From contig CM000151.3 of the NCBI GenBank assembly GCA_000004695.1, forward strand, positions 7,456,001 to 7,520,000: DNA of 64,000 nucleotides, read 5' to 3'. The translations under genes were made by a program, and so were the position numbers. This document shows positions 10,113-51,884 of the stretch, piece by piece (within the stretch, counting starts at the first letter, position 1; every line of letters starts with the position of its first letter). The DNA is from Dictyostelium discoideum. Its lineage: Eukaryota. The notes below the pieces were generated by a model that was given only the letters and a program-made list of their open reading frames with translations, had not been told where the DNA came from and made no database searches.

Positions 10113-12513
10113 ATGAGTAAAATGTTTGATTTTCTGCAAATAAATAAATCAAAACAATCACCAAAAACACACTCTCCACCAAAAGAAGATGAAAAACCAA
10201 CGACAGCACAACCAACTACCAATGTAAAACCAGTAGCAGCAAATTTATTTCAATCACTAAATGTAAAGACTAACAATAATAATAGTAATTCACCCATAAA
10301 AGTTGAAAAAGAAGTTTTAGTTGAGGATTCACAAACTACAACAAATGAAATCAACGAGAACGATCCAAATAGTGAGTTTTAATATATATATATATATATC
10401 TATATCTATATCTATATATTACAACAACAACAAACATACAACATAATTTTAAAAATACTAACCCAATTAAATATGTATGTGCATATGTGTATTTATAGAA
10501 AGAGTAATTAAAAAAGTTAAAATAAAATCATTCAAGCCAGGTCAACCATCAAATAATAATAACGATGAATTAAACACAAACGATAATAGTAATAATAATA
10601 ACACCACCTCAACAATTAACCCCGATTTATCTCAATTAGATACAAATAATATCTATGCTGACAATTATAAAAATGAGGATGATTATAATGATAACGAAGA
10701 AGATAATGATGATCAATTAAAAAACAATATTAACAAAGAACAGCCAACTAAAAAAGAAAATTTAACAGAAACTACATCATTGACAAACACAACTACAACT
10801 ACAACAACAACAACAACAACAAAAACAGCAATTGAAACTGATACAAATAAAAAAGATGAAATTAAAGAAGAGAATATTACAACTACTGAATTACAACCAA
10901 AAGACCCACCTTCAATTTTAGATTGTTTAATTGATGAGTTAAAAAATTCTCAATATAGATTTTATGAAAAATTAACAAATATTGAAAATGATTATAAACA
11001 ATCATTAGAAAATAGAAAGAAATCAAATCAATTACTTTTAAATGTAATATATATATATATATAAAAAAAGAGTTTAAAAATATTTTACTAATATAAATTA
11101 ATATATATTTATATAAAGAATATTAATTTATTAAAAGAATATGAAGAAAAAGAGAATCAATTAGTAGAGAATGAAGATTATGAAGGTGCATCAAAGGTAT
11201 CAGATGATATTAATTCAATTCAAAAAGATAATGAACAAATAATGAATGATTTAATTAAATTGATAAAGAATAATCAAGAACAAGATCAAATCTTTGAAGA
11301 ATTATTAATAACCTATCAAGAATCAACCGATGAAAATCAAATTAAATTATTAGATATTAAATCTAAAGAGGATGAAAACATAAATAAATATCAAGAACAA
11401 GTTAAAGAAACTATTAAATCCATAAAGGATGAAATTGAAATTAAACAGGAATCAATCGATAGGGAAACTAAATATTTGTTATTAGATAAAGAGATATTGG
11501 AAACTAATGAAACCTCTCTAACCAATACAATCAATGAATTGAATAAACCATTGATTCAAGAGAGAGAAGGACACATTCAAACTAAACAATCCCTACAAGA
11601 TGAAATTGATAAACTTTTATTAGAGATTCAATTGAAACGTGATCAACAATCTAAATGTGATCAACATATTAATGAAATCAATGAAAAGATCGACACTATC
11701 TCGTCAAGTAAATTCTCAAAGGAACAGTCTAGATTAGAACAAGAGAGATTAAATATAAAGAAAAGAGATGACCATATCATTCAACTCTCCACTGAACTAT
11801 TAGAATTAACAAATAAAGTTGACCAATTAAATAATCCATCCGATCATCCATCTTTTCAAATTATCTCTAGTGTAGATGAAACTATTAAAGATTGTAAATC
11901 ATTCCTATTGGAAACTACCTCAACTTTGGATAATATAAGTTTACAACAAAAACAAATACATAAACTCTACAAAGATATCTTACAATCAGCAGATTCTCAC
12001 AAAAGAATGCAATCAAAATTGACAACTCTTACTCAATCAATTCAAGAATTAACAATTGAAACTAATTCACATTCTTCCCAAAAGATTCAATTAAAGAAAT
12101 CCATTTCCGAGTTGGAAGATACAATACCACTTTTAGAACAATCTAAAAACATTGCCAAAGATTCTAAAAGATTCACTGAAGCAGCTTCATTATTATCAGA
12201 ATTAAAACAAAAACAACAACTCTTAATTGAAAAGAATAAACAATTACAAGAAATCTCTGATCAATTGGATTTAAACACTACAAAATTAGATTCCCTTCAA
12301 AAAGAACACACTCAATACAAAGAAATCACAGAAAAACAAAACTCCACAAACTATTTAAATCTTTTAGAAAATTTACAAAAAAGACAATTAGAATTACAAT
12401 CATTAATTGATGACGATAAAAACTGTTTAGATAAATTAAAACAATTTTATAAATTAGAATTTGATTCAAATTCATTTGAAATAAGTTTTATAAAATTAAA
12501 ATTAAATAAATAA
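10113..12513 (+). CDS. Long coiled-coil protein, 3 exons: 10113..10371, 10499..11043, 11119..12513
   Basis: GTGAGT donor at 10372 and acceptor tatttatAG at 10497-8 give phase 1+2 = codon AAA. GTAATA donor at 11044 and acceptor ataaAG at 11117-8 are both phase 0. This joins three ORF-track ORFs into one protein of about 735 aa. The N-terminus is low-complexity with a TTTTT... tract; the C-terminal 450 aa are heptad-rich (E/K/Q/L). Confidence 0.55.
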
Positions 12514-17727: not shown

Positions 17728-17801
17728 GGGACTATAGTTTAGTTGGATATAACGACCGGCTACGAACCGGTAGGTCTCAGGTTCGACCCCTGATGGTCTC
17801 G
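17728..17801 (+). tRNA. tRNA-Arg (anticodon ACG)
   Basis: Manual cloverleaf. Acceptor GGGACTA pairs with TGGTCTC, including 2 G-U pairs. D-stem GTTT/TAAC with an AGTTGGATA loop carrying GG. Anticodon stem ACCGG/CCGGT, loop CT-ACG-AA. Variable loop AGGTC. T-stem TCAGG/CCTGA with T-loop TTCGACC. Discriminator G. Followed by T7, a Pol III terminator. Confidence 0.9.
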
Positions 17802-18021: not shown

Positions 18022-19279
18022 TTAATCAAAAATAAGTTCAATTAAATATAGTTTTGAATCTGCATTATACCCAGTTTTTGTACCACCATTCATAGATCTA
18101 ATACATTTAAATATGACTTGTTCATTTTCTACTGTAATAAGCTTGGATTCATTAGTGGCATGTGGTGGATTTTGGAAATTTTCATTATAAACAAAGTAAG
18201 AGTTTCTAAATTCTTGTTCAGTACCTTGATTAAAACTTAACACTTCTGAAACAGGACCACTTTCAACAACCCATGTAGCATTGCCATTAATATGATGATG
18301 TATCTTAACTTTAAATGATCTTTTTTTAATACTTTCAAACTTTACAATCAAAGTTGCTTGTAAATTTAAATTTCCTGCATTAAGTCCCTTGGAAAATAAA
18401 TAATAAAAATATAAATTAATATAAATTTTAGTTTTAAAAAAAAAAATAAAAAATAAAAAAATAATAAATTACTCTAAACCCAGAAGATAAACTATTGGTA
18501 ACTTGAGAAAACCCTGCAATTAAACCTGGGTAAAGTAAGTGGGAACCTCTTTCATCACCACAATTAAAATGAATTTCACCAATATTTCTTTGGTAATCAA
18601 ATGCTCTAAGAGGATAATAGGTAAAGTCTGCATTTTTGAATTTTCTTACAGCATTAAAGTATGGTGGTATATAATAACCAATAATTGGGGAAGTTTCTTC
18701 TCTAAAAATATGACGGGAAAGCATCCAACCTGATTTAACAGTGATTTCAAAAAATTCTATTGTATAATCATGAATTTTTTTTTTTGCATCTTCAACATCA
18801 AAATCACTGAAACCCCATTCTTTACCATAAAGATGACAATCTCTTTGTAAACAAAGATATTGTGAAGCTGTTAAAATATAAAAACCAATGGTATTAATCT
18901 TTTTTTTTATTTATTTTTTTTTTATTTTTTTTTTTAAAAAAAGAATAATTAATAAAATTTTTTTTAATAAAAGAATTAATATTAAAAAACTTACTAATTC
19001 ACTTTCTTCCTTAAAATAAATTAAACCATCAGTTATTTTATCACGATACATCATTAATTGAAATTGAAGTGAAGAATTAAGTTGTTCATTAGTCATTACT
19101 TGAATATCATTTGGAATAATACTACGACTAACATTTTTATTTCCATTTCTTGAAAAATATTCTTCAGCTAATACAAAATAGTCATCGCCAGTTTTTTGAA
19201 GTTGTTGGAATTTAATTATACATTGTCTCTCTCTTTCTTGACTTAACTTATGGTCAATTAATTTTTCAACTGCTTCCAT
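18022..19279 (-). CDS. Hypothetical cytosolic protein, about 358 aa, 3 exons: 19279..18995, 18898..18473, 18387..18022
   Basis: Exon 1 MEAVEKLIDHKLSQ... ends before GTAAGT at 18994-18989. Exon 2 begins after an A-rich ...aaaaaaaaAG at 18900-18899 (phase 0) and ends before GTAATT at 18472. Exon 3 begins after ttttccaAG at 18389-18388 (phase 0). The exon 1/2 junction is the least certain. Conserved-looking core: YPLRAFDYQRNIGEIHFNCGDERGSHLLYPGLIAGF. The family was not recognised. Confidence 0.55.
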
Positions 19280-19437
19280 TATTTGTTTAAAGCTAAAACC
19301 ATAAATTTTTTTTTTTTTTTTTTTAATTTTTTTTTTTAATATTTAAAAAAAAAAAAAATTTAAATTTATTATATTAGTTCTTTTATATATATATTTTTTT
19401 TTTTTTTTTTAATTATTATTATAATTATTTTAAGTAA

Positions 19438-19806
19438 TTACAATTGTTCTTGGGAATTAAATAAACCGAGACTATTAAAAAGAATATTAATAGCACCGAA
19501 AATAATTGGAGCAACACCTGAAGGATCAGCACTCATTGCAAGACCCAATATTTCCCACATTTCTGGAAATGGCATTTCACTGTAAAGTTCTTTGGCACTT
19601 TTTTCAGATTGAATTGATTGGAATGAAATTTTCAAATCTTTAATTTCATTCTCACTAAAATTTGAAATTGAGTTGTTTTGTTTCTTTAATTCAACCAATT
19701 GTTCATTTAAAAAATTATTTAATTTTTCATCATAATTTTCATACACTTTCTTGGCTCTTATTTTAGAATCCTCCAATTTTGAAATTTGTTCCACTGATAA
19801 AGTCAT
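19438..19806 (-). CDS. Small tail-anchored coiled-coil protein, 122 aa
   Basis: Continuous ORF MTLSVEQISKLEDSKIRAKK... with a C-terminal hydrophobic segment GVAPIIFGAINILFNSLGLF. Family not recognised. Confidence 0.45.
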   Translation of the reverse strand: MTLSVEQISKLEDSKIRAKKVYENYDEKLNNFLNEQLVELKKQNNSISNFSENEIKDLKISFQSIQSEKSAKELYSEMPFPEMWEILGLAMSADPSGVAPIIFGAINILFNSLGLFNSQEQL

Positions 19807-19871
19807 TTTTTAATTTGGTTTATTGTTTAACAATAATAATATTAAAATAATTATAATTTTTCTTGTTTTAA

Positions 19872-19920
<49 letters not shown>

Positions 19921-20039
19921 AATAATTGGCTATTAAATGAAAAATGGATTGGGAGTCAGTTAAAAATTGTAATTGGAGAATTTTTTTTGATTAAATCTGA
20001 AACTGATTGGGTTTTTAACCAAAGCTCAAAAAAAAAAAA

Positions 20040-20600
20040 AACCAATTGGTTTTAAAAATTATTAAGATTGAATCTCAAAAAATTTATTTTTGTATTCTTC
20101 TTTCAAATTAAAAAAATGGTTTAATAAATGAAAAGAATTAAAAAAAAGAATTGTTTTTTTCATTATACAAATTAAAAAATAAAATAAAATTAAAATTAAA
20201 ATAATTTTTTGGTTTTTTAAAATCAATGAGGTTGTGAGCTTCACTTATTATTAGAACTTTTTTGTAATTTAAATTTAATTCAAAAAAATAAATAAAAAAA
20301 AAATTTAAATTACAAAATATTTCACCAAACCCCCAAAAAAAATAAAAAAAATTATGATAATTTTAATTTTAATTTTTTCACACCTCAAAATTTTATTAAG
20401 GCATTGTTATTGGAAAATGAAACATTACCAATAAAATCCTTTTTTGATCTGGGAGTTTAATTTGTAATTTGGTAATTTTCATTTTTTTTTTTTTTTTTTT
20501 TTTTTTTTGTGTGGTTAATAATGGGGAAATAAGTTTTGAGGTGTGAAAAAATTAAAAACAATCAAGAAGGTAAAAAACAAAAAAAAACAAAATCAAAATA
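20040..20600. repeat. Non-coding repeat block, copy A (3' of the esterase gene, 5' of the 19438 gene)
   Basis: Shares ordered motif islands with 22830..23420: aataattttttggttt, aatcaatgRggttgtRagcttca, aaacccccaaaaaa, ccttttttgatYtgggagtttaatttgtaatttggtaatt + poly-T + gtgtggttaWtaatg...gttttgaggtgtgaaaaa...ggtaaaaaacaaaaaaa. About 75-80% identity in the alignable parts. Confidence 0.7.
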
Positions 20601-21012
20601 AACAAAATTAATATTTAATATCTTTATCTTTAATTAATCCCATGAATTTTATAAAAATAGTCTTCAAAATACATTATAACCAGTTTTTACACCACCATCA
20701 ATTGACATACATTTGAATAAATTATATTACATAATAAACAAGTTATAAGCTTGTTATTTAGGTCTTTTTCTTTTTTTTTTTTTTTTTCTAATAAATTTCA
20801 TTTTAGTTAAATGAATAAAGAAATTAAAGAAAAAGAATTTTCATTTTTAATTATTGGCCATAAATATTATTTAAAGTGTATTTTTACTAAAAACTTAATA
20901 AAAAATATATATATTTATTTAGAAATTATAATAAATTAATAAAATGAAATATAAAATATTTTATTTATATAATTTTTTTTAATTAATAAATTAAATTTAA
21001 TTTTTTTATTAT

Positions 21013-22717
21013 TTAAGGTCTAACTTGATTTCTATAATAAGTCAAATCTAAAGCATTACATTTTGGATCATTTGTAAAAGTATCTTTAGTTTCAATAGTT
21101 GTTTCCAAAATTAAAGTTGAGTTTTGAGTAGAAGTGACTTGTCTCCATTGTATTGGTACATCTAAACCAGTGTTTGGATTATGAGTAGTTGCAAAGTTAA
21201 CTATATAGTTATTAATATCAATAGCTAATTCCTTTTCATCATTATCCAATCTTTCACCCATTAATTCATAGCTATTAAAGAATAGTGATAATTCAGTACC
21301 ATGACATACTTTATCATCACAGGCATCCAATGAATGACCAGTTGATTTTACATGAACATAATAGTAATGATAGGTTGGGGATGAAAGCTTTTTAGCATTT
21401 GTAACGGTATGATATCTATCTGGACATCTGAATAAATAATCAGTGATTAATTCAGATAAAATTGGTCTTGAATCTTGACCTCTTGGAGCGGCTGGATATA
21501 ATGGTAAAATCTTCATAGCATTCAATGGGAAAACAATAGCAACGAGAACTCTATAGTAATCAATTCCAACAATATCTTGGAAAAATGAATAAATGAATGG
21601 GATAGCTTCATGTTTTACACTTCCAATAATGGTTGGAACATCATATGTTTTACCTTCCTTTACAGCGGTTAATGGTTGCATTGGTATGATATCTCCGTCG
21701 ATAACTGGTGACCAAATAGTAAAAGCATCTAGAATTTTATCACCAAAGGTAAGTCCAACTTTTTCTTGGGCTTCAAGAATTTCATCCATTGATTTACCAC
21801 GAAGACATGTTAAATCTTCAATATTACAACCAACATTTGTTGCGAATCTATTAGCATTACCTCTGGCGGTTGTTTTGTCTTTCAATCCAACAGTCAATGG
21901 TGATGATGATGAGATGGCAGCATTAAAATATTGTCTTGAATAAGTAGATGTTAAATGAGCTGAAACTGAAAAGGCTCCTGCAGATTCACCCCAAATTGTA
22001 ATCATTTCTTTATTACCACCAAAGGAACCAATATTATTATAAACCCATTCTAATGCTTTAATTTGGTCAAGGAAACCATAATTACCATGCATTAAATCCT
22101 TTTTAATAATTAAAAGAGATAATAACAATAAAAAAATAATATATTAATATATTTATTAAATTACACATATATTAATAATGTATATTAAAACTTACAGTTC
22201 CCATAAAACCTAAAACACCTAATCTATAATTAATATTAACAACTATTACTGATGATTGAGCAAATTTAGTAGCATCATAAAGAGGTACAGAACCACTACC
22301 AACACTAAATGCACCACCTGGAATATAAACAATTACTGGGTATTTTGAATTTGGTGTGGCATCTTTTGGAGTAAAAACGTCAAGATATAAACAATCTTCA
22401 GAAGTACCAATTGGAGAGCAAACACCTGGACCAAGATTACATTTTTGAGCACATTGTGATCTTTGGGTTAAAGTTTCTCTAACATTTTCCCATGGCTTTA
22501 AGTCAATTGGATTTTCCCATCTTAATTGGTTCACTGGTGGTTGAGCAAATGGAACACCATAGAATACACGATGAGTATCTTCAACAATACCCTTAATTGC
22601 ACCAAATTGAGTTACAACAATTGAAGCATCTGTGTTTTTAATGTATGATCTTTTTCTTGCAAAAGAAATATTAATTAATAATAACAATAATAATATAAAA
22701 ACTAATAATTTATTCAT
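21013..22717 (-). CDS. Secreted type-B carboxylesterase/lipase (cholinesterase-like), 536 aa, 2 exons: 22717..22196 and 22098..21013
   Basis: Signal peptide MNKLLVFILLLLLLINISFA. EDCLYLDVF (carboxylesterase B signature 2). GESAGAFS (catalytic Ser in the GESAG pentapeptide). Minus-strand GTAAGT at 22195-22190 and acceptor aaaaAG at 22100-22099, a 97-nt phase-0 intron. Confidence 0.9.
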
Positions 22718-22829
22718 TTTTTTTTTTAATTAAAGTTTTAAAATAAAAAAAAAAAAAAAAACTTTATTAATTTATACTTTTTTTTTTTCATAATACAAAT
22801 TTAAATAAAAAAAAAAAAAATTAAATTAT

Positions 22830-22908
22830 TATAAAATAATTTTTTGGTTTGTTTATAATCAATGGGTTGTAAGCTTCATTTATTTTTAGTACTTTTTTGT
22901 TAATTTCC

Positions 22909-22940
<32 letters not shown>

Positions 22941-23255
22941 TATTTTATCAAACCCTTTAAAAAATATTTTATTGATTAATACCCCCTTGTTAATGATTTT
23001 AAAAAAAAAAATCAAATTGGTTTTAAAAATATTTTTTTGAACATTTTTTTTAATTAAATTCAAACCCCAAAAAATGAATTAAAAAAAAAAAATAATATCT
23101 CAAATTAAATTTTTTTTTTTTTATTTTTAAAAAGGTTTTGTTTGAGATTATTTTATGATTATAAATTAAAGAATGCATTGTTATTGAATAATTATGAAAC
23201 ATTATCAATATAATCCTTTTTTGATTTGGGAGTTTAATTTGTAATTTGGTAATTT

Positions 23256-23287
<32 letters not shown>

Positions 23288-23420
23288 CAGTGTGGTTATT
23301 AATGTAGGAAAACAGTTTTGAGGTGTGAAAAACAGTTTTGAAGTGAGATTAAATTTATAATAATCCTTGAAGGTAAAAAACAAAAAAAAAAAAAAAACAT
23401 ATCAAAAAAGTCAAAATTAA
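22830..23420. repeat. Non-coding repeat block, copy B (5' of the esterase gene, 3' of the TIG membrane protein gene)
   Basis: See copy A. Contains an internal tandem duplication aacagttttgaggtgtga / aacagttttgaagtgaga and a rearranged order of the caaattggttttaaaaat island. Confidence 0.7.
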
Positions 23421-23554
23421 AAAACCAATAAAAAAATTGAAACCTAAGTTAAATTATATTAATTATTATTATTTTTATTTATTTATTTAAGAAATACAAT
23501 AAATTGATTAAGAATTTGAAAAATCTAAAGGTACTTCTTCAGTATTACATTGAG

Positions 23555-23590
<36 letters not shown>

Positions 23591-23609
23591 TACAATTTCA
23601 TTATTATTA

Positions 23610-25475
23610 TTATTGTTGTCTATTTTCTAATTTAATTTTTTGTTTTAAAATTCTTATACCAACTCTATGTCTTTTATAAATTATAGAACCAATTATAATA
23701 ATGATTGCAGCACCTACAGCTGGTGCAACAATTACCACTGGTAAAAACCATTTTGGTCTGGAATCATCATCATCACATGAAGTTTTATAATCTTGGTCTA
23801 CTAATAAAGAGAAATCAGGATCAATTAAACATGTTTTACAATGTGGTAGATTTAGCCCAATTAAAATAGAATCAGTTCTTTGTCCAACAATTGAAGTTGA
23901 CATAAAAGTTTCTCTACCATCCGAAATTACTTTATTGATAAATCTACCATAAAAAGTTTTTGAATCTTTTGAAATGGTTAAATAATTTAAAGATTGATCG
24001 TTTTTGAAATCATTTGTATTTATATCTAATTTCTTTGCGTTACAATTTTTATTACCATTTGAATTATTATTACTATTATTATAATCGCCTAGAGATGATT
24101 TAATTCTTAATTGAATTGAATTTAATGTACTATGATATGTATAATTTTGAATTGAAACTGTTAATTTAAGTGAACCGGGTGATAATGTAAAATTAACACC
24201 TGCAAATGAATAATTTTTATTTTTACCAATAACTTCTTCAATTGAATATTCAATTGTGCAACTTGCATTTGAAATAAATTGTGAAAATACAACAATTCTA
24301 TTATTATCATTATTAGTATTATTATTGTTATTAGTTTTATTCCATTTATTACTTAATAAAAATTCATTTACTGTTGAACCATTAAAATTTAATTCAACAA
24401 GTGAATAAATAGAAATTTGATAATTTGAACCATCATTTGAAATTGAAGCTTCACCTGTTGTTTCATTAATATTTGGTTTTGATGATGGTGCATCAGGGTT
24501 GGAATCTTGTGAATTACAATTGAAACCTGTAAAACCATTGATACAAGTACAAATTCCTGAATCAGTATTACATATACCATTTGATGAACTTGTACAATCA
24601 TTAGGACATGAATGTTTAATTTTAGTATATTGAAAAATTTGTTTGCCAGTGTAGGATATATCCATATCGATTATTGTTACATCTTTTATACCTTCACCTG
24701 GACCAATATCACATTGAATTGTTGAATCATTAATAACTTGAATATTCTTACATTGTAATTCACCAATTTTAATTGATAATCTTTGAGATGTAGTTGTTGT
24801 TGTTGTATTATAAATACCAAAATAACCATGTAAATAAGTTGTACCGCCATTAATTGTTGTTGAATCAACAGAGTTGATATAAATTCTAGACAATTCACAA
24901 CCTTTACCATTGGTTTGAGAATCACATTCACATTCACCAGTTACTCTATTACAAGTACCATGTGGTTGTGAACAATTCAATGGACAATCTCTACAAACTA
25001 GGCTAGTATCAATTTGGACTCCATATGTACATCTTTGAATTTCTAGTCCAGGTGCTGTTACATTTAATTTTGGGATATTTGGGTTACATGAAAAAACAAA
25101 TGATGTTTTTCTTCTATTTGGTTCTGGTGCATCAGAACAATCATTACCTGTTATTGGTTGGAAAATTTTTGATCTATACACAATTGTCATACCACTTGAT
25201 GTATAATTTACAGTTTCACCAACATCTATAGAACCAAGTTGAAAAATTCCAATACTCTGACATGCTGTTGCTCCAGTTACATTACAAATATTAAGTGTGC
25301 CATTGCAAAAATTAAAATAAGTTTCGAATGAAGTTGATGATAAATTTGTTGAAGGAAATGCTACTGTATATTTTAAATCTGGTATCCTTTTTTTTTTTTT
25401 TTTTTTTTTATTAATATAAAATAATTTTTTTATTTTTTTATGGATCAAACAGGATTAAAAAAAAAATTTTTTATT

Positions 25476-26047: not shown

Positions 26048-28506
26048 TTATTTTTCTTTCAAACCTTTTGCAGCCATTTTGATATTATGTTTAATAATTT
26101 TAATTTCCACTTTTTTCTTATAGTATAGTACAGATCCAATAATTATTATTAAAACAAAGGTAACGGCAGGAGCACCAATAACAACATATAAGAACCATTT
26201 TGGTCTAGCATCATCACATGATGTTTTAAAATCACTATTTACTAATAAACTGAAATCAGGATCAATAATCACTTTTTTTAAAAAATGAGGTAAATCTAAA
26301 CCAATAAAAACCACATCATTATTATTACTATTATTATAATTATTATTTATTACTGAAGTTGAAATAAATGTTGGCCTATCATCAGATAAAACTTTATTAA
26401 TGAAACGACCATAAAATGTTTTTGAATCTTTTGAAATTGAAAAATAATTATTTAAAGAATTACTATTATCCAATTTTTCCGAATTAATATTTAATTTCTT
26501 TGAATTACAATCAATATTATTATTATTTGTTTCATTTTTACCAATTTTCGATTTAATAATAAGTTGTAAATTATTTAAATTATTTAAATATTTATAATTT
26601 TCAATTACAATGGTTAATTTAATTGAACCTGATACAACAACAAAATCAACATCACAAAATGAAAACATTTTATCTTTACCAACCACTTGTTCAATAATAT
26701 ATTCAATTTTACAATTTGAATCATTATTTAAATTTTGTGAAAATGTAACAATATTATTAATATTTGTGTCATTTGCCAATGGAGAAGAAGATGATGATGA
26801 TGAAGATTAATTCCAACTATTTTCAAGAAGGAATTCTTTAACAATTGTACCATTATAATTTATTTCAACTAATGAAAAAATACTAATGAAATATTGTGAT
26901 TTTTCATTTATAATTGATGATTCACCAGTTGTAAGATTTACATTAGGAGTTGATGGTGATAAACCTTTTGAAGAACAATCGATACCAGTGAATCCTTCAT
27001 CACAAATACAAGCTCCATTTGTTGTATTACACTTACCATTTAAATAACAATTTGTTGAACAATTGAAAGATGGTTGGATATATTTAAAAATTTTCTTACC
27101 CATAGCTATTAAATCATTATCAAAAATTTCAACATCTTTAATACCACTACCTTTTCCAATAATACAATTTATAGTTGAATTATTGAACTGATTAATATCA
27201 GTACAATGCAAATCACCAATCAAAATGGTAATATTTGAAGTTAAAATACCAAAATAACCATAAATCGTTACATTTCCACCTTCGATTGAAGTTGAATCAA
27301 TTGAACTAATATACAATTTTGATATTTCACAACTATTACCTATTGTTTGTGAATCACAATTACAGAAACCAGTGCCATCTTCTTCAACAACTATGCATAA
27401 ACCATGATTTGAACAATTTAAAGAACACTCAATATATTTAAATTCAACTGTCGAAGAATTAGATTTACCAATTGAAATTATAGTATTGTGAATACCAGTA
27501 CCTGGTCCAACATAACAAGTTATGGTCGTTTCATTAATATGAGTTATATTTATGCATTGTTGATAGTCACCAATATAAACTGTAAATGGGAAATTATCAT
27601 TTGGTGAACCAAAATTACCATAAAGTGTTGTTAAACCACCACTAATATTTAAAGGAACAATTGAATTTAAACTCAAATGATAAGTCTGACAATGGTTACC
27701 ACTAGTCAATGAATTACAATTACATGTATACTCCTGATCGAATTGACATTCACCATTTGTAGAACAATTTGCTATACAACCATTGAAGAATATCTTGGCA
27801 TGAACTGGTCCTAAATCACCAATTCTTAATATAACATCCTTCGTTCCTTGATTCTTACCAGTTGTACAAATTAATTCATTCTCACTAATATAAAATATTG
27901 GGTTACAATTTAATTCTTCTATTGAAATTGAAGTTGAACTAGAATTATCGCCAAAATAACCTTTAAAAGTTACATTTCCTCCATCTGCTTTTACTTCTAA
28001 TTTATTGGTAATTTCAATTCGTGAATTGTCACATATTTCTCCATTTGTATATGAATCACAAACACATCCCTTTTGATCATTTATATCACATATACCATGT
28101 GAATTTATATCTCCACACCCTGGTGGACAAGGTACACATACTGTATTGGTTAAATAGGTAACACTATAAATACATGTGGCAATTTCCTTAATTTTATTAT
28201 CTTCAATTTGTTTTTTAAATAAAGTTGAATTATATCTAGTACCACAAACTAAATTGACTGTCAAATTTCTCTGACGATTATTTTTCACACAATCATCTTC
28301 TTTTCCAGTCAATAAAATTTTTAATCCATCAATAGTTGGTTCATAAAGAATTTTTTCACCAATTGTCTTACATCCTGATTCTTGTATAAAAGGAGCTTTG
28401 ATTTTATAAAATAGGCACAAAAATTCCGCATTTTCACAAAAATTTATATGAGATCTTAATTCTGGTTTATCATTTTGATAAATAAATGTTAAATAAGAGT
28501 TGGAGC
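26048..28506 (-). pseudogene. Tandem paralog of the 23610..25655 gene, same domain order through TM and tail, interrupted by one in-frame TAA (26807..26809); probable recent pseudogene, or an allele/truncated secreted isoform
   Basis: ORF-track ORFs 26807..28420 and 26048..26779 are in the same frame and separated only by TAA. The paralog reads AAA (Lys) at the aligned codon (...KWN-K-TNNNN vs ...SWN-*-SSSS). Exon 2 acceptor ttaatAG at 28508-28507 is phase 2 like the paralog. I could not find a convincing signal-peptide exon 1 upstream; the region carries a 55-nt poly-T. Confidence 0.5.
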
Positions 28507-48825: not shown

Positions 48826-49057
48826 TATTTTAATTAATTTATATAAATATAGGAGGTGATTTATTAAAATAAAAAAAAAAAAATAAAAAAAAAAGAAAAT
48901 TTTCGTCGTTTGTCGGTTTTTTTTTTTCTCAATAGCTTAAAAATTTTTTTTTTTTTTATTTTCCATTTTTTATTTTTATTTTTTTTTTTGACAATGATTT
49001 AGTTACAGGGGGAAACTGTCACTTAATCATTGTCAATGAAAATTTTGAAAATTCACC

Positions 49058-49180
49058 ACACGGTACTAATGAATCCAAGCTTATTACAGTTGAAAATGAA
49101 CAAGTCTCATTATATTGTGTTAGATCAGTGGATGCAGGTTATCATGTATTTTCAAGACTATATTGAACTTATTTTTGGTT
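49058..49180 (+). pseudogene. Pseudogene fragment: degraded inverted copy of the 3' end of the last exon of the 18022..19279 gene
   Basis: ccacacggtactaatgaatccaagcttattacagttgaaaatgaacaagtc here against ccacatgccactaatgaatccaagcttattacagtagaaaatgaacaagtc (reverse complement of about 18100..18160), and the homologous 3' end lies upstream through 49190. Encodes ...NESKLITVENEQVSLYCVRSVDAGYHVFSRLY*, then a 1-bp deletion before the equivalent of IELIFD*. No start codon and no upstream exons. Confidence 0.55.
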
Positions 49181-49296: not shown

Positions 49297-51884
49297 TTAA
49301 TCAGCATTTTTAACGATTGTAAATTGTTCGATATTACCAAATTGAGAAGTTTTAGAAATTTTGATATCGGGATAAGTTTCAGTATCATTTTCAGGTTGTT
49401 CTAAATTTACTAATACTTTGGTTTTTAAAACCAATAATTCATAAAAGTAACAAGCTGCAACCAATCTAGTATTGTTTGGATTTTGAGCTTGTTGAGGTCT
49501 AACGATATCTTGTAAAAAGTTTATAGTTTCTTTCTTTTCAAAATGATCACTTAAAATTGAATGCATATTTGCAGTTTTTTGAGATAAAATTTTCTTTTCT
49601 TCTTCATGTTCTCTTTGATATGCTTGTTGATTTGGTCTTTGAGCTGATTCGAAACTGTACTCTGGTACATCACCCAAATCACCTGGATGAACGAAACCAG
49701 GCTGTTCCTCTTGATCATAACCTAAACCAATACCTTGATGATCGTCATCACCACCATGCATAAAATGTTGACCCATATCACCTTCTTCTCTTCTTAAACG
49801 TTCTTCTTCCTCTTCTTTTTCTTTTGCTCTCTTTAAGAAATCAGTTGAACCATCAGGTGAACCAATTGATTTTTCACCACCACCGTCGCCACCACCAAAT
49901 GCACCCATACCTCTTAAAGTTTGATTTATATCTGGTTTATAAAATAATGATTTTCTATTCTTACTTCTATCATCAAATTCAGTTCTTAACCTATTGATTA
50001 AATCTTTATCATCATCTGTAAGTGGTTGAGTTTTTAGTTTCTTTCTTTCACTTGGTGCAATTAAATTACCACTCTCAGTGATGACACGATTATTTATTGA
50101 TTTTAAAAATGCTTCTTCAACTTTTCTCTCTTGATTTTCATCATCGACCAATTCTAAATCTTCAAAGTTTGGTATACCCAAATCCAATGATGATACACCA
50201 TCGGCAGCCATTGACATTGATAATTCTTCATTCTTTAACATTCTACCATACATTAAACGTGAACGTAAAAATGAAAAATATGGATCTTCATCTTTGTTGA
50301 TGACCTTTGGATATCTATTATCAAGTAAATCACCATACATTCTATGGAAAGTATTAGATATATTCTTACGAATTGCTGTTAACATTTGTTGTTTTGCTGG
50401 TATCTCTTTGGATTTTGTAATTACAAGATTTAAACTTGATGGTAATAATGATCTTTCCACTACCAATGATCTTGTATTCTTAAATTTTCTAATATCTTTA
50501 TCACTTAATGTACTACCTAAAACTCTAGATCTTCTAGTCTTTGGTTTATCTTTTTGAACTTGTTCTTCCTTTTGTTTCTCTAATAATAATTGTTGTTGAA
50601 GTTGTTGAATTTCAAATTCAGTTTTCTCTTCAGTTGCAACATTATTATCTGTTGTTGCTCCTCCCACTGATGCAGTAGTGGTGGTTGTATCTTCTTCACC
50701 GGTTTTATCAGTTGTAACTGATTTTGCTGGTGTTATAGGTCTACCATTTTCATCAAACTGTTCTTGATGTGGTTGTTGATCATCATCATGAGTTTCTGGA
50801 CCTGTATAAGCTGGATAATCGTCATCACCATGACGCATACCAATATCGACATGTTGTTGATCATCACCACCACCATCATCTTGTGGTGGCATATTCATAC
50901 CTTCATCAAATGTAACCATACCTGCATCTTCCATTAACTCTCTTTGTGATTTTGGTAATGGTGTTGTTGCAGAATAATTGAATAATGGATTTTGATTATC
51001 ACTTATTAAAATATCGATATTACTCTTTACAGAGTCTGGTGTTTTTGGAGTTTTACCTTGACCAAAAGGTAAGCCAGTATCTGGTGTTGATACCATTGTA
51101 TTATATTCTGCTTCTCTGAGTTCATCAGATTTAAATCTTCTATCACTTTGTGGTGTAACTGTAGTTGTACCATCAAATACTAAATTATTATTACCCTCAT
51201 TAGATGGTGTTTGAACACTTCCCAATACTGCTTCATCTGCAACTCCAAAAAATTCACTATAATCTGGCTTTTCTGTTGGTTCTAATTTATTTGGATCATA
51301 AAGTGGATCTACTACCAAACTATTTTTTTATTAAAAAATTTATTAATAAATAATTAAATAAATAAATTAATTAAATAAAATAAAATAATTATATATATAT
51401 ATATACTCTCTAATATCAATATTTCTTAAAAATCTATCGACCTCTTGGTAAACTTGTGGTTTATCAGTTTGACGTGGACCAGATGTTAAAAGTGCTTGAT
51501 GATCTTGTTCAGAAGGTAAATCAATCTTTGAAATTGTTTTTGATAAACCTTTTAATTTAATTACTGCTTCTGTACAATCACTTAGAAGATATTTTGCTTT
51601 TTTTGAAAAAATTCTTGCGACACCTAATAGTAAATGACTAGTCATACGAAGTGCCATTGGTGAATGTGGATTTAAAATTGTTTCTATTTTTTTTTTTTTT
51701 TTTTTATTAATTTCTTTATTAATTTCTTTATTTATTTTATAATAATAATAATTTACTTACTAACTGATTTAGGAATATTTGTTTTAAAAACAACATTCTT
51801 TGCTAATTTTTTATCCCAATGACCTGCTAACCAAATTTTACCGAGGGCACCTCTCTTTGCTAAAACAATTTGTGAAAAGAACAT
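49297..51884 (-). CDS. RAD21: Cohesin subunit RAD21/SCC1 (kleisin), about 809 aa, 3 exons: 51884..51761, 51683..51407, 51319..49297
   Basis: Exon 1 [41 protein letters not shown] ends phase 1 before GTAAGT at 51760-51755. Acceptor aaatAG at 51685-4 supplies AA (codon AAA). Exon 2 [44 protein letters not shown]... ends phase 2 before GTATAT at 51406. Acceptor aatAG at 51321-20 supplies T (codon GAT). Collinear with the human RAD21 N-terminus as I recall it ([41 protein letters not shown]...[37 protein letters not shown]). The C-terminal winged helix ...[26 protein letters not shown] matches ...[21 protein letters not shown]. Confidence 0.85.

Follow-up and report, generated by a model that had tools for sequence, protein, structure and literature searches.

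The carboxylesterase gene in the window (the whole 64-kb stretch of Dictyostelium discoideum chromosome 2 that was analysed) is flanked by two non-coding blocks, here called A and B. Our results strongly suggested that the blocks are paralogs, each a copy of the ~640-bp upstream region of a D2-type esterase, and that block A is the relic of an old local tandem duplication followed by gene loss. The preliminary description had left three options for the blocks, namely remnants of a segmental duplication, a reused terminator-promoter cassette or a dispersed uncharacterised repeat. The first option agreed with the lineage-restricted second copy, with a relic of the neighbouring 484-aa gene at the junction before block A, and with intact arrays in sister species. 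The features on which the analysis is based are listed below in the order of their coordinates.

18022..19806, minus strand: multi-exon gene for a 484-aa protein with an N-terminal delta-endotoxin domain (UniProt C7G000), downstream of block A.
19807..20150, minus strand: native upstream region of the 484-aa gene, outside the repeat; L008 and L010, which have no block A, carry homologous sequence at this position.
20151..20611, minus strand: block A, defined by alignments, very probably a paralogous copy of the esterase upstream region that has been orphaned, lacking both a TATA box and an esterase gene; its parts are a core (20401-20611), a short linker (20334-20400) and a proximal segment (20151-20333).
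20367-20390 and 20534-20557, no strand assigned: arms of a perfect 24-nt inverted repeat in block A.
20652..20753, minus strand: decayed relic, ~100 nt from the very end of the coding sequence of a 484-aa Endotoxin_N-type gene; in gene orientation it directly precedes block A.
20754..21012, minus strand: 3' flank of the esterase gene.
21013..22717, minus strand: carboxylesterase gene DDB_G0276969 (535 aa), with an intron at 22099-22195.
22745..22777, minus strand: presumed esterase core promoter, GTATAAATTAATAAAG at 22762-22777 followed by a T17 run at 22745-22761, just outside the repeat and absent from block A.
22779..23420, minus strand: block B, defined by alignments, the ~640-bp 5' intergenic region resident upstream of the D2-type esterase, with orthologous copies in L004, L006, L011, L008 and L010; it consists of a distal core (23175-23420), a middle part absent from A (22957-23174) and a proximal segment (22779-22956).
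23312..23351, minus strand: CACACCTCAAAACTG motif region, where 20 nt are duplicated in tandem; seen only in block B of this strain.

Default blastn scoring on A/T-rich DNA gave hundreds of spurious poly-A/T matches. It was replaced by a composition-weighted Smith-Waterman local alignment, in which G/C matches were weighted up and A/T matches down and shuffles served as controls. The comparison set comprised the window and 11 further loci (~270 kb of Dictyostelium DNA). Two collinear same-strand segment pairs were found between the blocks. The pair A 20401-20611 and B 23175-23420 scored 166 (35 for the reverse-complement control), and the pair A 20151-20333 and B 22779-22956 scored 95 (21 ± 2.7 for dinucleotide shuffles, with a maximum of 31). 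The top unrelated match in the whole window was a poly-A stretch with a score of about 41, so the similarity is not mere poly-A/T low complexity and two diverged non-coding blocks do bracket the esterase gene, as had been described. A 40-nt island occurred exactly twice, with 0 occurrences expected. The proposed common orientation and identity of ~75-80% also held: MAFFT gave 375/497 identical positions between A and B (75.5%), or 79% when restricted to the columns ungapped in six copies, where A-B identity was 78-81%. The overall identity was ~75-81%, and the repeat search of the window found a gap-free 92-nt core at 95%.

The block limits first proposed (20040..20600 and 22830..23420) were nearly correct. 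The true extents are 20151-20611 for A and 22779-23420 for B, and 20040-20150 falls outside the repeat. The motif aaccaattggttttaaaaat at 20040 is ancestral to the upstream region of the 484-aa gene and lies outside the duplication. That upstream region also contains its own T-run (19875-19917, which reads A43 on the plus strand). About 190 nt inside B are missing from A. The G/C islands had been taken as better conserved than the spacers, which is true for alignability only: G/C positions were retained between A and B at 49/68 and 49/83, i.e. without preference. The apparent conservation of the islands is limited to alignability because A/T runs change by indels. An 18-bp inverted pair reported in copy A is real, but it is actually the perfect 24-mer listed above. 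It arose through an insertion of 26 nt that is unique to the chromosome-2 copy of this strain and is missing from block A of L006 and from the chromosome-4 block A.

Block B is the original copy, that is, the upstream region of the esterase. It lies directly before the core promoter in the window, and in the related genomes L004, L006, L008, L010 and L011 it occupies the orthologous position upstream of the esterase. The A-B homology ends exactly at the TATA box of B. We take GTATAAATTAATAAAG and the T17 run to be a TATA box and oligo-T promoter, on the general picture of Dictyostelium promoters. Block B presumably carries the upstream regulatory sites of the esterase. The CACAC-type islands may resemble the CA-rich elements of GBF (G-box binding factor). 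A literature search on the esterase gene, cAMP-regulated D2 and the endotoxin/esterase pair found no match, and one on GBF sites yielded nothing of use. The idea of a reused terminator-promoter cassette was thus right in that B is the esterase upstream region, but block A has no TATA box and gave no sign of reuse.

The sequence on the other side of block A was also informative. The segment 20652..20753 matched the 3' end of the 484-aa gene with a score of 46-57 (17 ± 2 for shuffles, with a maximum of 24) and with a tblastx E value of 5e-4. In L006 the relic is longer, reaching past the stop codon into the 3' flank by ~95 nt (score of 69 versus a shuffle maximum of 21). A piece of 484-aa gene end directly 5' of block A marks a head-to-tail duplication of the unit formed by the upstream region, the esterase and the 484-aa gene. 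An esterase pseudogene downstream of block A was considered and rejected, because tblastn of the window gave no further esterase fragment.

The distribution of the two blocks differed between lineages. Both were present in the four D. discoideum assemblies (the window, L004, L006 and L011). Block B was at the syntenic position in 6/6 loci of the D. discoideum complex, and both D. cf. discoideum genomes (L008 and L010) had B only. Over the columns ungapped in the six copies, the identity between A and B was about the same as that between B of the window and B of L008 (78%), which dates the duplication to about the split of D. discoideum and D. cf. discoideum. Block A could nevertheless be older than the split and have been lost in D. 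cf. discoideum, since the rooting of the trichotomy of A, B and the L008 copy of B is ambiguous. Intact esterase arrays with duplicated upstream regions were found in D. dimigraforme (L001) and D. purpureum (L003), and the upstream regions of their tandem esterase copies were mutually homologous (scores of 94-210 and 121). A search for the islands in the esterase upstream regions of D. citrinum, D. firmibasis, D. dimigraforme and D. purpureum gave a sole match, one 29-mer in D. citrinum. A metagenome scan for a 27-nt island gave no match.

From these observations we infer the following order of events, with one duplication and then two deletions. The unit of upstream region, esterase and 484-aa Endotoxin_N gene would have undergone a tandem duplication in an ancestor of D. 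discoideum sensu stricto, around the time when this lineage and D. cf. discoideum separated. Of each gene, esterase and 484-aa, one redundant copy would have been deleted afterwards. The remains would be the second 484-aa gene, the terminal ~100-230 nt of the first one, and the second upstream region, ending just before the TATA box. Block A would also have lost ~190 nt internally, apparently between two short repeats of the GGGTTTG type, and a segment already containing A would have been copied later to chromosome 4, the site of the canonical D2 gene. The duplication model requires two separate deletions, which counts against it, and the 484-aa 3' end and the block may instead have been inserted together in one templated step. 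A second relic of the 484-aa C-terminus lies in the window at 49026-49163 with no block adjoining. Fragments of the 484-aa gene thus also arise without an adjacent block, which counts against the duplication model.

We considered whether the blocks belong to a dispersed non-autonomous repeat family, MITE-like or otherwise mobile, that was inserted by chance on both sides of the esterase. The blocks are indeed non-coding, ~0.5 kb in size and intergenic, and copy A contains an inverted repeat of 24 nt. This repeat, however, is internal and restricted to one copy, and apart from low-complexity A/T pairs it was the only inverted repeat found. Only two copies of the block were found in the window, those in the 11 further loci were confined to esterase/484-aa loci, and the unrelated chromosome-4 locus L005 had none. 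The blocks have no terminal repeats and no ORF. Their boundaries are a TATA box and a gene-end relic instead of target-site duplications. A mobile element is therefore highly improbable, and the option of a dispersed repeat in the preliminary description found no support in these ~270 kb.

Another way to explain the conserved core would be as a two-copy gene for a small non-coding RNA. The core is G/C-richer than its surroundings, and within it lies a small inverted repeat resembling a hairpin (TTATTGG...CCAATAA), in which B shows one change that looks compensatory. But the blocks gave no Rfam match even at E <= 1. The consensus fold of the six copies reached merely -3.2 kcal/mol, with the hairpin broken in two of them. 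No DUSE-like motif ([AT]CCCA[CT]AA) was found on either strand of either block, and a homopolymer run of 27-29 nt lies in the middle of the core. We regard an RNA gene as hardly credible. A conserved small ORF in the core was also tried and rejected, because the 28-aa ORF in A needs an ATG unique to this copy.

The canonical D2 locus on chromosome 4 (L009) was located via its 484-aa paralog. DDB_G0283087, which was looked at as a D2 neighbour, is not adjacent to it. The esterase DDB_G0276969 shares 98.9% identity with the canonical cAMP-regulated D2 esterase there, and the architecture is the same: a truncated B, D2, the relic, A and the 484-aa paralog. The core is missing upstream of the chromosome-4 esterase. 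The results indicate that the canonical D2 locus is a young copy of the chromosome-2 locus, minus the distal core.

The duplication origin leaves room for a present function of block A, and the two are compatible, with function being no alternative to duplication. Block A may have been selectively retained as a cis-regulatory module, a transplanted D2-type enhancer acting on the 484-aa Endotoxin_N gene 345 nt downstream, in which case the esterase and its 484-aa neighbour would be co-regulated. Between D. discoideum strains, the core and the proximal segment of A were 83-84% identical per length, whereas the adjacent pseudogene relic and the flanks were 39-55% identical per length, with large deletions. 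This better preservation of block A hints at more than a neutral fossil. Block A is also intact on chromosome 4 and in 4/4 D. discoideum sensu stricto loci, and it spans -345 to -805 relative to the ATG of the 484-aa gene, a typical position for Dictyostelium upstream elements. Against a regulatory module, the substitution divergence of the blocks between strains (9-11%) was not below that of third codon positions (6%) and was near that of the intron (14%). The lack of preference for keeping G/C positions and the lack of the islands before the esterase in the four more distant species, save the one 29-mer, point in the same direction. Moreover, the chromosome-4 locus has no core before its esterase, yet the published D2 protein (CAA36703.1, P0126) is closer to that copy (99.4%) than to the chromosome-2 copy (98.3%). 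If CAA36703.1 came from mRNA, the core is dispensable for esterase expression. Weighing these points, we consider selective retention of block A as a module possible but rather unlikely.

A further step would be that, through block A, the adjacent Endotoxin_N-like 484-aa gene acquired a new developmental expression pattern in D. discoideum that resembles that of the esterase, unlike in D. cf. discoideum, which lacks A. This is speculative, and we hold it to be doubtful. If true, the locus would be a dated, polymorphic example of regulatory rewiring through promoter duplication. The extra copies that the CACACCTCAAAAC motif gained independently, inverted in A and in tandem in B, would then represent recent tuning of a putative binding site.

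The mode of origin that we favour, duplication followed by loss of the extra genes, is ordinary genome evolution. What looked like a mystery repeat can be accounted for as the relic of a routine duplication, and there is no need to pursue it as a novel element. The result is of modest value for Dictyostelium specialists, for whom the extent of the D2-type esterase upstream region is now defined. D. discoideum and D. cf. discoideum offer a natural presence/absence contrast in which to ask if the gene next to a duplicated upstream region can become rewired by it. In addition, recombination between the two direct repeats could potentially remove the esterase.

The blocks can be compared with several known systems. 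Like Dictyostelium transposable elements, they are repeated intergenic non-coding DNA, and a tRNA gene lies ~2.3 kb away (17728-17801). Unlike TRE5/TRE3, DIRS-1, Skipper, DDT, Tdd and thug, as we understand these elements, they lacked terminal repeats and ORFs for reverse transcriptase or transposase, the DNA examined contained no dispersed copies, and their boundaries are explained by gene features. They share short G/C-containing conserved islands in A/T-rich intergenic DNA with the Dictyostelium Class I ncRNA genes, which have an upstream DUSE, but they contain no DUSE motif or conserved stem and have no Rfam match.

In the tandem esterase arrays of D. dimigraforme and D. purpureum the gene family is the same, and so is the adjacent Endotoxin_N gene (484/485 aa). 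Each esterase copy in these arrays has a homologous upstream region of ~300-640 bp, and one of them directly follows the 484-aa gene. These upstream sequences have diverged so far that they do not align with the blocks of D. discoideum. The extra esterases are intact in the arrays, whereas in D. discoideum nothing is left of the extra copy but the upstream region and a small piece of the 484-aa gene. The locus also resembles the general mode in which duplication and loss leave orphaned promoter or pseudogene relics, with a lineage-restricted copy, a junction signature, decayed redundant coding parts and one working copy per gene. It differs from that mode in that the surviving relic is mainly regulatory DNA, not a recognisable pseudogene, and now lies upstream of a different gene.

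The relevant genes all lie on the minus strand, in the order ComC-like gene pair, block B, esterase, block A and 484-aa gene.

Genes around the two blocks
26048-28420 and 23610-25448, minus strand: two tandem ComC-like membrane-protein paralogs (EGF-repeat, transmembrane), upstream of block B
21013-22717, minus strand: carboxylesterase, two exons, intron 22099-22195
18022-19806, minus strand: 484-aa gene, multi-exon

The esterase is DDB_G0276969 of AX4 chromosome 2; it shares 98.9% identity with the canonical cAMP-regulated D2 protein of chromosome 4 (P18142, DDB_G0283085). Annotation gives the 484-aa protein an N-terminal delta-endotoxin domain, and its chromosome-4 paralog falls in the same 90%-identity cluster. 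Gene models of the ComC-like pair (23610-25448 and 26048-28420) vary among assemblies, fused or split. A tRNA gene (57.9 bits) was found at 17728-17801 on the plus strand, ~220 nt downstream of the 484-aa gene.

Ordinary blastn scoring on this very A/T-rich window was swamped by hundreds of spurious poly-A/T alignments. Therefore, local alignment was employed with log-odds scores from the intergenic composition (A 0.44, T 0.41, G 0.08, C 0.07), by which G/C matches outweigh A/T. The core segments (A 20401-20611 and B 23175-23420) scored 166 versus 35 for the reverse-complement control, and the proximal segments (A 20151-20333 and B 22779-22956) scored 95 versus 21 ± 2.7 for dinucleotide shuffles (maximum 31). 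Both pairs are collinear and on the same strand. When the four segments were scanned across the 64-kb window, they matched at A and B only, and the top background (41) was a poly-A tract. A and B also share a gap-free stretch of 92 nt with 95% identity, and a 40-nt island occurs twice in the window versus 0 expected. These results demonstrate that the repeat is genuine. The preliminary description was thus right about a two-copy non-coding block around the carboxylesterase, and the similarity is not the mere low complexity that it had named as a refutation. It had put the blocks at 20040..20600 and 22830..23420; the two places hold, and the extents are redefined as 20151-20611 (A) and 22779-23420 (B), with ~190 nt of B missing from A. 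Similarity ends with the core, as A 20612-21012 against B 23421-23609 scored at shuffle level.

Block B ends, in gene orientation, directly before GTATAAATTAATAAAG (22762-22777), which is followed by a T17 run and the ATG. We take GTATAAATTAATAAAG plus the T17 run to be the esterase core promoter, as they fit the TATA-plus-oligo-T architecture typical of Dictyostelium. The A copies match B through AATTTGTATAATGAAAAAAA, diverge after it and have no TATA box. The esterase has an orthologue of B in front of it, at the corresponding position, in three further D. discoideum assemblies (L004, L006, L011) and two "D. cf. discoideum" genomes (L008, L010), which makes B the upstream region resident at this gene.

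Block A was present in 4/4 loci of D. discoideum sensu stricto (the window, L004, L006, L011). It was absent from the esterase-484aa intergenic region in both D. cf. discoideum genomes, which keep the native upstream region of the 484-aa gene (counterpart of window 19807-20150). Consistently, all-against-all intergenic comparison within each locus found the A/B pair in L006 (141) and the chromosome-4 locus (111), and no such pair in D. citrinum or D. cf. discoideum. In L008 (D. cf. discoideum), a large palindrome occupies the block A site of the esterase-484aa intergenic region (11828-12016; 83-nt arms, 89% complementary, 23-nt spacer).

In gene orientation, A is directly preceded by a decayed 3'-end fragment of a 484-aa-type gene. 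Window 20652-20753 aligns with the final ~100 coding nt of 484-aa genes from several genomes (scores 46-57, 71-73% identity; shuffles 17 ± 2, maximum 24; tblastx E = 5e-4). L006 keeps another part of the relic, namely the last ~30 coding nt, the stop codon and ~95 nt of 3' flank (score 69 versus shuffle maximum 21). DNA at this position thus comes from the far end of a unit comprising upstream region, esterase and 484-aa gene, and the junction is what a head-to-tail duplication of that unit would create. A second relic of such a gene (C-terminal ~50 aa, 58% identity, E = 4e-12) lies at 49026-49163 on the plus strand, just 3' of a 673-aa gene (49297-51318, minus strand), with no esterase-type block adjoining.

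The 18-bp inverted pair reported earlier in A exists, and is actually a perfect 24-nt repeat (20367-20390 and 20534-20557). It arose from a 26-nt insertion found only in the chromosome-2 A of this strain lineage (absent from A of L006 and of chromosome 4), which looks like a recent templated (fold-back) insertion. In block B, 23312-23351 is a 20-nt tandem duplication of the CACACCTCAAAACTG motif region, absent from B of L006 and L008. An additional copy of the motif has thus arisen in each block by a separate event, inverted in A and tandem in B.

The chromosome-4 D2 locus, L009 (GCA_054883475.1, L009:4528-11809), was located via the 484-aa paralog. Window 20921-23157 matches it at 97.6%, including the esterase and the middle and proximal parts of B without the core; window 18007-21004 matches at 91.6%, including relic, block A and 484-aa gene. 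The chromosome-2 architecture was thus copied to chromosome 4 with A already present. A 2.1-kb insertion with an EF-hand gene (L009 7427-8211) separates the two matches, and the difference in identity between them may reflect gene conversion or two separate events. The gene series AICARFT, ComC, esterase, 484aa, Dus recurs in loci L004, L006, L007 and L008, and its AICARFT, ComC, esterase part also in L002; the chromosome-2 locus thus keeps synteny with other species, which makes the chromosome-4 copy the derived member of the pair. With 99.4% identity against 98.3%, the published D2 protein (CAA36703.1) resembles the chromosome-4 copy more than that of chromosome 2. The core is missing upstream of the chromosome-4 esterase, so the esterase can probably be expressed without it. 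Elsewhere on chromosome 4, a non-LTR retrotransposon ORF (L005:4045-9077, minus strand; endonuclease and reverse transcriptase, 1596 aa) lies beside the distant esterase paralog DDB_G0283087.

For dating, identities were calculated over 396 columns ungapped in six copies. A and B share 78-81%, B of the window and B of L008 78%, A of the window and A of L006 90.7%, and A of the window and A of chromosome 4 94.4%.

Neutral yardsticks, identity to the window
L006: third codon positions 94%, intron 86%
L008: third codon positions 87%, intron 87%
D. citrinum: third codon positions 75%, intron 77%

In the identities over the 396 columns, the split of A, B of D. discoideum s.s. and B of D. cf. discoideum is close to a trichotomy, which dates the duplication to about the speciation of these two. 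An older A that was later lost in D. cf. discoideum is, strictly, still conceivable.

Other readings of the blocks were also considered. For an RNA gene, Rfam gave no match at gathering threshold or E ≤ 1, the consensus fold of six core copies reached just -3.2 kcal/mol, a small TTATTGG/CCAATAA hairpin was broken in 2/6, and no DUSE-like motif was found in the blocks. For coding sequence, A and B have no common ORF, and the 28-aa ORF of A needs an ATG unique to A. For a transposon, the blocks lack terminal repeats and any ORF for reverse transcriptase or transposase, about 270 kb examined held zero copies beyond esterase loci, and the sole notable inverted repeat is the 24-nt one from the copy-specific insertion. 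A metagenome scan with a 27-nt island gave no match.

A position 345-805 nt ahead of the 484-aa ATG makes it plausible that A was co-opted as an upstream element of that gene, and the evidence on its constraint is mixed. Between window and L006, core A and the A proximal segment retain 83-84% identity per length, versus 39-55% for the flanks and the adjacent relic of similar G+C, with large strain-specific deletions; block B and its distal flank differ in the same way. This favours some constraint. However, substitution divergence of the blocks between strains is about neutral and G/C positions are not kept preferentially, so the proposal that G/C islands are better conserved than spacers fails at the substitution level. 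Apart from one 29-mer in D. citrinum, no island could be detected in front of the esterase of D. citrinum, D. firmibasis, D. dimigraforme or D. purpureum. The CACAC-type islands may resemble CA-rich GBF elements; a literature search gave nothing usable.

In conclusion, block A is an orphaned copy of the region upstream of the esterase, marked by a clear junction relic, in agreement with the "remnant of a segmental duplication" option raised at the outset. D. dimigraforme has the series esterase, esterase, 484-aa gene, esterase, and D. purpureum has esterase, 195-aa gene, 485-aa gene, esterase. Within each species, the tandem esterases have mutually homologous upstream regions (scores 94-210 and 121, respectively), one of which lies directly behind the 484/485-aa gene. 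This locus has thus seen repeated duplication of the esterase together with its upstream region. These sister species have intact esterase copies, whereas in D. discoideum the second copy survives only as its regulatory part, and the A/B pair is a fresh instance of a well-known evolutionary process.
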